DNA of 64,000 nt from an uncultured Flavobacteriales bacterium (GTDB taxonomy: Bacteria; Bacteroidota; Bacteroidia; Flavobacteriales_D; Parvicellaceae): assembly GCA_964455265.1 (NCBI GenBank), contig CAYVVI010000001.1:4593-68592 (forward strand). Reading direction: 5' to 3'. The notes beneath the pieces were generated by a model. It searched no databases and was not told where the DNA came from. It was given only the letters and a program-made list of their open reading frames with translations. Below are positions 34,556-34,720 of this stretch, piece by piece. Made by a program: the position numbers and the translations under genes. Position 1 is the first letter of the stretch. The number at the start of each line of letters is the position of its first letter.

Positions 34556-34575
34556 CACTGTCATTTTATGACCGT
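34556..34575 (-). promoter_or_regulatory. conserved palindromic promoter-proximal motif (copy 4, drives the 1071-aa toxin)
   Basis: The sense strand reads ACGGTCATAAAATGACAGTG, then AAGAATTGTTCATTTGC. Confidence 0.7.
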
Positions 34576-34700
34576 AAAGAAAAATGTGAGAAAAATATTT
34601 TTCTTTCGTCATTACAAACGTCTCTAGAACTGTGTTTTTGCTAGTGTTTTCAAAAACACAAAACACCACATCAAACAAAAAGTTATTAACAATTTTGTTC

Positions 34701-34720
34701 ACGGTCATAAAATGACAGTG
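34701..34720 (+). promoter_or_regulatory. conserved palindromic promoter-proximal motif (copy 5, drives the CIS structural operon)
   Basis: ACGGTCATAAAATGACAGTG, then GCGTGTTCTTTATTTGC. It is divergent from copy 4, which lies 125 nt away. Confidence 0.75.

Follow-up and report, generated by a model that had tools for sequence, protein, structure and literature searches.

Dedicated activators of phage-tail-like loci include PrtN, which acts on the R/F pyocins, and the RfaH-like AnfA1, which acts on Afp. GafYZ is the dedicated activator of the Caulobacter GTA (PMC11150451). In these systems one dedicated switch coordinates the particle genes with lysis, and the locus described here, within a 64,000-nt stretch of DNA from an uncultured Flavobacteriales bacterium (hereafter the window), appears to be organised likewise, although its proteins and cis-elements differ from theirs and none of the three regulators is detectable in the window.

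Beyond a few Proteobacteria and Streptomyces, little is known of how eCIS loci are switched on, and the Bacteroidota literature searched offers just a statistical association with GerE-type regulators. In the survey of Geller et al. (2021, PMC8213781), 25.8% of eCIS loci have a neighbouring regulator of the GerE/LuxR type, with a histidine kinase upstream in 9% of the eCIS operons that have a GerE-type regulator (PMC8213781). No DNA target of these regulators is defined in that study (PMC8213781), and a 2026 review says likewise (PMC12961389). Here too a Response_reg+GerE gene abuts the island and a histidine kinase lies nearby, as in the surveyed loci (PMC8213781). The orthologues of the window's regulator are found in a module away from eCIS loci, unlike the eCIS-flanking GerE regulators. 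Dimers of the LuxR/NarL family bind dyads of the 20-21-bp kind described below, such as the lux box, the tra box and the DosR box; the predicted centre of the present dyad is near -31, compared with -42.5 for the lux and tra boxes.

At the pho boxes of PhoB, the Spo0A boxes at spoIIG and the T4 MotA boxes, the bound factor replaces the -35 element. The promoters predicted here resemble these in keeping the downstream core element while the upstream one is absent, and in having a putative protein site at about -30 instead. The known boxes, however, are direct repeats or asymmetric and belong to sigma-70 promoters, whereas here there is a dyad in the Bacteroidota -33/-7 setting, and the analogy is functional only.

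AusR of Zobellia galactanivorans is a GntR/FadR repressor whose TKGT-N2-3-ACMA operators overlap the -7 box in variable numbers (PMC7641319). The cassette described here is an ordinary, well-known kind of regulatory site, and the AusR regulon is a close precedent: both belong to Bacteroidota, both are locus-specific, and in both a palindromic operator is joined to a -7 box upstream of several units (PMC7641319). The present locus differs in that each block has one 21-bp dyad, always separated by 8 nt from the box downstream of it; the sequence is unrelated, and no GntR gene is present. The novelty lies in a defined candidate cis-element for Bacteroidota eCIS, together with the island-wide regulon that the element outlines; the literature searched contains no such cis-element for eCIS.

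Five copies of a 49-bp block in the eCIS island

The eCIS island, which encodes a phage-tail-like particle for injecting toxins, extends over ~45 kb, from 17714 to beyond 63081. The first-pass annotation had described five copies of a palindromic motif at the heads of five transcription units, and Pfam annotation of the island bears this out: each unit is headed by one block and none is without. The units, with the probable terminator that marks the left edge of the regulon, are as follows.

Unit 5, 34758..63081 at least (+): eCIS structural operon, with Pvc16_N cap, two sheath genes, two tube genes, CIS_tube, VgrG-like spike, PAAR and gp25, and also large baseplate proteins, LysM, lysozyme, a 312-aa cargo, an Ig-repeat fibre-like protein and a PG-binding protein
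Unit 4, 28274..34520 (-): 1071-aa toxin, PoNi immunity, 166-aa protein, TPR protein, NS-type endonuclease and YezG-like immunity-like protein
Unit 3, 26613..27920 (-): AAA+ ATPase, with a predicted leader of ~102 nt
Unit 2, 24894..26529 (-): 393-aa cargo-like protein with an MRERLHKP... leader, and a 155-aa 5-TM protein
Unit 1, 17714..24420 (-): M15 peptidase with a PG-binding domain, 2-TM protein, 243-aa protein, patatin phospholipase, membrane proteins and unknowns
Hairpin, 17517..17559 (-): ACCAAAATGGTCAT-N11-ATGACCATTTTGGT and then a T-run, probable terminator closing unit 1

Unit 5 encodes two proteins of ~1,270 aa. The 393-aa cargo-like protein of unit 2 had earlier been labelled papain-like, for which no support was found. 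Its N-terminal leader, MRERLH[KR]P.RQEEPA.RSEND..MQENDLISRFPNG[IV]FG, is common to the 393-aa (26529(-)) and 312-aa (55350(+)) cargo-like proteins and to an orphan ORF of ~45 codons (~24880(-)), and a partial version (HKP..., FPNGVFG) is present in the 1071-aa toxin (34520(-)). This leader is a candidate eCIS cargo-loading signal. Small multi-TM proteins come after both of the full cargos (393-aa and 312-aa). Residues 928-1056 of the toxin (31335-34520 (-)) match PDB 9waq chain B ('VP14465') with an E value of 9e-16, and a PoNi immunity gene comes after it, which suggests a PoNe-like nuclease toxin domain at the C-terminus. An element of ~50 nt, CTAAATCCGGCAAATCGAAATTAGCACCGTTTTTC.AG.AGTTAGAA.AACT, occurs twice on the (-) strand, once in the gap at 29266-29388, where it abuts the start of the endonuclease ORF, and once at ~28175-28225, downstream of the 115-aa immunity-like gene. 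The element resembles a recombination footprint left by swapped toxin cassettes.

The hairpin at 17517-17559 (-) has a 14-bp stem, separates the accessory operon from the response-regulator gene, and has arms (AATGGTCAT) that resemble the motif half-site, but with its 11-nt spacing and its absence upstream of the regulator orthologues it is best read as a terminator. To the left, the left 17 kb of the window is free of motif copies, and the segment from 620 to 13340 is a mobile/defence patchwork containing an XRE protein with an M78 peptidase, an LRAT/NlpC-like protein, a C5 methylase, a ParB-like protein, a serine recombinase, GmrSD and a HEPN protein.

The motif reads ACGGTCATAAAATGAC(A/C)GTG. 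A search of the window returned all five copies at exactly the coordinates and on the strands first reported and no others in the window; allowing up to 3 mismatches adds just the reverse reading of the palindromic copy 3. The number of matches expected from dinucleotide shuffles, likewise at up to 3 mismatches, is 0.00. Outside the five sites there is no excess of degenerate copies (1 vs 4.4 expected at 7 mismatches on the 21-bp dyad). Long ORFs leave 4,450 nt (7%) of the window uncovered; all five cores fall in this part, and an unbiased 13-mer repeat search of it finds the motif as the only multi-copy element. Every copy is non-coding and in the sense orientation to its downstream gene. The five blocks, numbered P1 to P5 for copies 1 to 5, are the following.

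P5, 34688..34736 (+): promoter block with upstream module 34688-34700, core 34701-34720, linker 34721-34728 and box TTTATTTG at 34729-34736; heads the structural operon
P4, 34540..34588 (-): promoter block with upstream module 34576-34588, core 34556-34575 and box TTCATTTG at 34540-34547; heads the toxin/immunity operon and is divergent from P5
P3, 28027..28075 (-): promoter block with core 28043-28062 and box TTTCTTTG at 28027-28034; heads the AAA ATPase gene
P2, 26555..26603 (-): promoter block with core 26571-26590 and box TTTATTTG at 26555-26562; heads the genes for the 393-aa cargo-like and 155-aa 5-TM proteins
P1, 24443..24491 (-): promoter block with core 24459-24478 and box TTTATTTG at 24443-24450; heads the M15 peptidase / 2-TM / patatin accessory (putative lysis) operon

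Block P2 starts ~10 nt past the stop codon of the ATPase gene. Copies 4 and 5 are back to back, as first described, with 125 nt between their cores and both facing outward. A second palindrome, AGTGTTTTCAAAAACACA, is located at ~34643-34660 within this divergent spacer and may be a further regulatory site.

When the copies are aligned in the direction of the downstream gene, the conserved unit is a 49-bp block composed of an upstream module, ACAATTTTCTT, the palindrome, an 8-nt linker and a TTtaTTTG box. The upstream module, which is A/T-rich and occupies -13..-1 relative to the core, was overlooked in the first-pass annotation. Mean pairwise identity among the five aligned copies is 0.98 in the core palindrome, 0.90 in the TTTG box and 0.68 in the upstream module, and is at background level in the linker (0.34) and the outer flanks (0.29-0.40). 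Indels are absent among the five blocks, and the spacing is therefore fixed in 5/5. A conserved core and box separated by a random linker, with no indels, speaks for separate modules under selection at a fixed spacing and against recent duplication.

The palindrome is a 9-3-9 dyad of 21 bp, CACGGTCAT-AAA-ATGAC[A/C]GTG, with 8-bp half-sites whose centres are 11 bp apart. Copy 3 is a perfect 9-3-9 palindrome, as had been noticed, and it is the sole perfect one of the five; copies 1, 2, 4 and 5 share a single departure from the dyad, an A for C at position 17 (8/9 paired). Neither pattern of the Bacteroidota SOS box (GGA-N5-TCC, CTAA-N5-TTAG; PMC8565304) is found in the core, and this assignment was rejected.

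Promoter reading and gene starts

The sigma-A -7 box of Flavobacterium psychrophilum, as defined by mapping of transcription start sites, is TAnnTTTG at -12..-5 (PMC9723704). A TTTG box following the motif at a distance of 8-12 nt had been described for four copies. The box itself is confirmed, but all five copies have one, and it follows at one fixed 8-nt linker with its G at +16 after the 20-mer. The boxes are TTTATTTG (three copies), TTTCTTTG and TTCATTTG; the TTTG is invariant in 5/5 at a fixed position, and the consensus TA (-12/-11) is absent in 5/5. With the -7 box set at -12..-5 (PMC9723704), the earlier placement of the palindrome on the -33 region holds. The dyad is then predicted to extend from about -41 to -21, with its centre near -31, and the upstream module from about -53 to -43. 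A -33 TTTG/TTG reportedly lies ~19-21 nt upstream of the -7 box; a -33 TTG is absent in all five copies, its expected position being taken by core bases 4-9 (GTCATA).

An SD-like 4-mer is present upstream of 2/48 genes (background 10%) and the leaders are 48% A, which together support a Bacteroidota context; the closest named homologues of the response regulator and the named relatives of the window proteins are from Bacteroidia and Bacteroidota. Given that Shine-Dalgarno sequences are absent as in Bacteroidota, the TTtaTTTG box reads as a degenerate Bacteroidota sigma-A -7 element with its G near -5. As there is neither a TA in the box nor a -33 TTG, the five promoters look intrinsically weak, with the upstream contact apparently supplied by a factor that binds the dyad. 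An alternative sigma-70-like reading, with TTAACA, 16 nt and TAAAAT formed by the palindrome centre, is disfavoured by phylum, and the dyad overlaps the core promoter in that reading too.

The mechanical gene starts at 24456, 34550 and 34734 had been suspected of being promoter sequence, and they do fall within the blocks. Translation of the segments after the box places the first plausible, and likely true, starts at ATG 24420, GTG 34520 and GTG 34758, the last of which, as the start of Pvc16, agrees with 36 homologues beginning M-I..A..FL. The start codon is 19-25 nt after the box in 4/5 copies and 106 nt after it for the ATPase. Leaders in Flavobacterium are typically short, as seen from mapped transcription starts in Flavobacterium psychrophilum (PMC9723704), and a distance of 19-25 nt is close to this typical length (PMC9723704). 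If transcription starts ~5 nt after the TTTG, the predicted leaders are 15-21 nt in four units and 102 nt for the ATPase.

Mode of control and candidate binding proteins

The DNA itself shows how many copies there are, where they lie and how they are oriented, that their spacing is fixed and their conservation selective, and that they cover the island; binding, the sign of control and the identity of the factor are inferred. The five copies are likely to be one promoter-operator cassette, heading every unit of the eCIS island, for a homodimeric helix-turn-helix regulator acting on weak promoters, probably by positive control; the whole island would thus probably be switched by one dimeric DNA-binding protein. 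Such a homodimer would contact two successive major grooves via the two 8-bp half-sites, which the 11-bp distance between their centres fits. The bound dimer would substitute for the missing -33 contact at these weak promoters, and the particle, the assembly ATPase, the cargo and toxins with their immunity proteins, and the lysis functions would fire together, only on signal. Positive control is somewhat more likely than repression, with the limit that a centre near -31 overlaps the core promoter and is as typical of repressors as of activators.

The main alternative, a less likely one, is that the cassette is a repressor operator, at which a dimeric repressor over -41..-21 would block RNA polymerase until a signal removes it. 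On either promoter reading the palindrome and the core promoter overlap, the five sites are near-identical, as for high-affinity operators, and the particles presumably require lysis for their release, much as when a prophage is induced; the flavobacterial AusR operators are also situated next to or over the -7 box (PMC7641319). Repressed promoters, however, usually have a strong core, and the core promoter here looks weak, with no TA at -12/-11 and no -33 TTG. One candidate for such a repressor is the XRE protein encoded at 1191-1541, cleaved by the M78/ImmA-like peptidase as in prophage/ICE induction, and this pair is present in the window. The XRE gene had earlier been named among the first candidates for the binding protein, but it is at least 23 kb from any copy, has none near its promoter, and is set among resolvase, ParB, methylase and GmrSD genes in what appears to be a separate mobile/defence region. 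The genes that come into question as regulators are these.

NarL/FixJ (Response_reg + GerE) response regulator, 16827..17450 (-): candidate trans factor by adjacency only
TPR-HisKA_3-HATPase histidine kinase, 14181..15938 (-): part of the same conserved two-component module
XRE HTH (1191-1541) and M78/ImmA-like peptidase (620-1216), 620..1541 (-): alternative candidate repressor/anti-repressor pair

Among named proteins, the NarL/GerE response regulator next to the island is the foremost, if tentative, candidate for the preferred dimeric regulator. The size of the dyad (9-3-9, 20-21 bp) suits the operator of a LuxR/NarL (GerE) dimer, for which a dyad of ~18-21 bp is expected; the response regulator and kinase abut the island, and a Response_reg+GerE gene is beside the operon in 2/6 related eCIS loci fetched. 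The response regulators beside related eCIS loci are just 22-31% identical to that of the window.

The first-pass annotation had put this regulator (16827-17450) forward as one of the first candidates for binding, a proposal that its orthologues do not uphold. They form a group at 42-57% identity, from which four members at 47-57% identity, in four other Bacteroidota genomes, were sampled. In 4/4 the gene belongs to a two-component module composed of a response regulator, an antisense small ORF, a second response regulator, a small ORF and a TPR histidine kinase, with housekeeping genes on the flanks and no eCIS within 10 kb. Neither the motif nor a conserved inverted (autoregulatory) repeat is present within 10 kb of the four orthologues. 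The adjacency of regulator and island may be an accident of the island's insertion site. The window copy of the module (14181-17450) has lost the second response regulator, and its antisense ORF at 16430-16837 is a called gene in 4/4 orthologous loci (L057-L060) and may be real.

An unlikely alternative is that the whole block is a dedicated promoter, with the palindrome as an upstream promoter element, and that it is read by an alternative sigma factor or by a factor of the sigma-appropriation type whose gene lies elsewhere or is one of the unannotated genes of the island. The near-invariant 20 bp, the fixed spacing and the common non-consensus box resemble phage middle and late promoters, and a motif near -30 replacing the -35/-33 element is the established geometry of phage T4 MotA-dependent promoters. 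Flavobacterium also has a -7 box variant with altered TA-to-TTG spacing (SM5, PMC9723704). Dyad symmetry, on the other hand, is not a property of sigma-recognised elements, and a dedicated sigma/anti-sigma pathway, as had been proposed, finds no sigma or anti-sigma gene in the window. Searches of all unannotated island proteins with Pfam, PHROGs and NCBIfam recovered no sigma, anti-sigma or other recognisable DNA-binding gene within the island. Single-sequence AlphaFold models of the unannotated 130-aa and 229-aa proteins have pLDDT values of 31-33, too low for use. We regard as doubtful the related notion of a new Bacteroidota promoter class, in which a dyad near -31 would replace the -33 element and be recognised by a factor that the island encodes and that lacks any recognisable DNA-binding domain, by analogy with phage sigma appropriation. 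If true, eCIS islands would carry a 'late' transcription programme of their own, self-contained and portable, by which particle, cargo, ATPase and lysis are coupled.

Much less probable is a role of the palindromes in the RNA, where they would be terminators or attenuators with antitermination of the RfaH/AnfA1 kind found in Serratia Afp. Copy 3 is scored as a terminator-like hairpin in both directions, the folds of copies 3 and 4 are better than those of shuffles (z -5.0 and -4.1), and each copy is followed by a T-rich tract; but copies 1, 2 and 5 fold like shuffles (z -0.3 to -0.6), the T-run begins 6-8 nt past the stem, four copies have the same stem mismatch with no compensatory changes, and copies 4 and 5 are in a divergent gap without an upstream co-directional gene. 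A hairpin that is significant in only 2/5 copies and a stem mismatch shared by 4/5 favour recognition at the DNA level. Rfam 15 covariance models give 0 matches at E <=1 in 17000-36000. As an intrinsic terminator the motif was rejected, as only copy 3 qualifies, and this copy may also be a terminator for unit 4.

It is most improbable that the copies serve recombination, as an invertible switch with the serine recombinase at 7941-8585, or represent a mobile repeat of the MITE-like kind. In favour of this are the inverted arrangement of copies 4 and 5 across 125 nt, the orientation of copy 5 opposite to that of copies 1-4, and a resolvase/invertase-family gene in the window. Against it, the -7-like boxes are outside the 125-nt segment and face outward, so that inversion would switch nothing; conservation extends no further than 13-16 nt beyond the core, and neither terminal repeats nor target duplications are seen. 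The recombinase gene is distant, at 16 kb from the closest copy and 26 kb from copies 4 and 5, and 596 Gb of genomes and the metagenomes contain no further copies. A MITE or dispersed repeat was also rejected on the grounds that conservation is confined to 49 bp and is broken by the random linker.

Distribution and significance of the cassette

The exact motif with its flanks is found nowhere else in 596 Gb of representative genomes, JGI metagenomes and IMG/VR. Motif scans give 21 single matches in genomes (~17 expected), 16 in metagenomes and 8 in viral sequences, none of them with shared flanks, and these matches are therefore chance or unrelated palindromes. The nearest Pvc16 homologue is 54% identical, and in six related eCIS loci fetched (Pvc16 <=54% identity) there is no homologous motif or multi-promoter repeat within 10 kb. 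A scan of viral-contig proteins for relatives recovered two fragments only, and annotated phage and plasmid records contain nothing close. Within the collections scanned, the motif is lineage-specific.

Two of the related loci have a single dyad of their own just upstream of Pvc16_N. At L033:9911-9928 this is ATGGTTAT-TT-ATAACCAT, beside a divergent GerE regulator, and at L052:9919-9946 it is CACGGA-N12-TCCGTG. These sites hint that lineage-specific operators may be common at this position in eCIS loci.

Particles of the eCIS type are under development as programmable protein-delivery tools, and the cassette might be used in heterologous expression as a set of inducible promoters that can be moved between hosts. 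Its value is limited in that only one uncultured genome carries it. For the organism itself, the 49-bp cassette predicts transcription starts, corrects three gene starts and offers a bait sequence for the binding factor. It also delimits the accessory genes of the system, namely the peptidase/patatin lysis set, the ATPase and two toxin modules.
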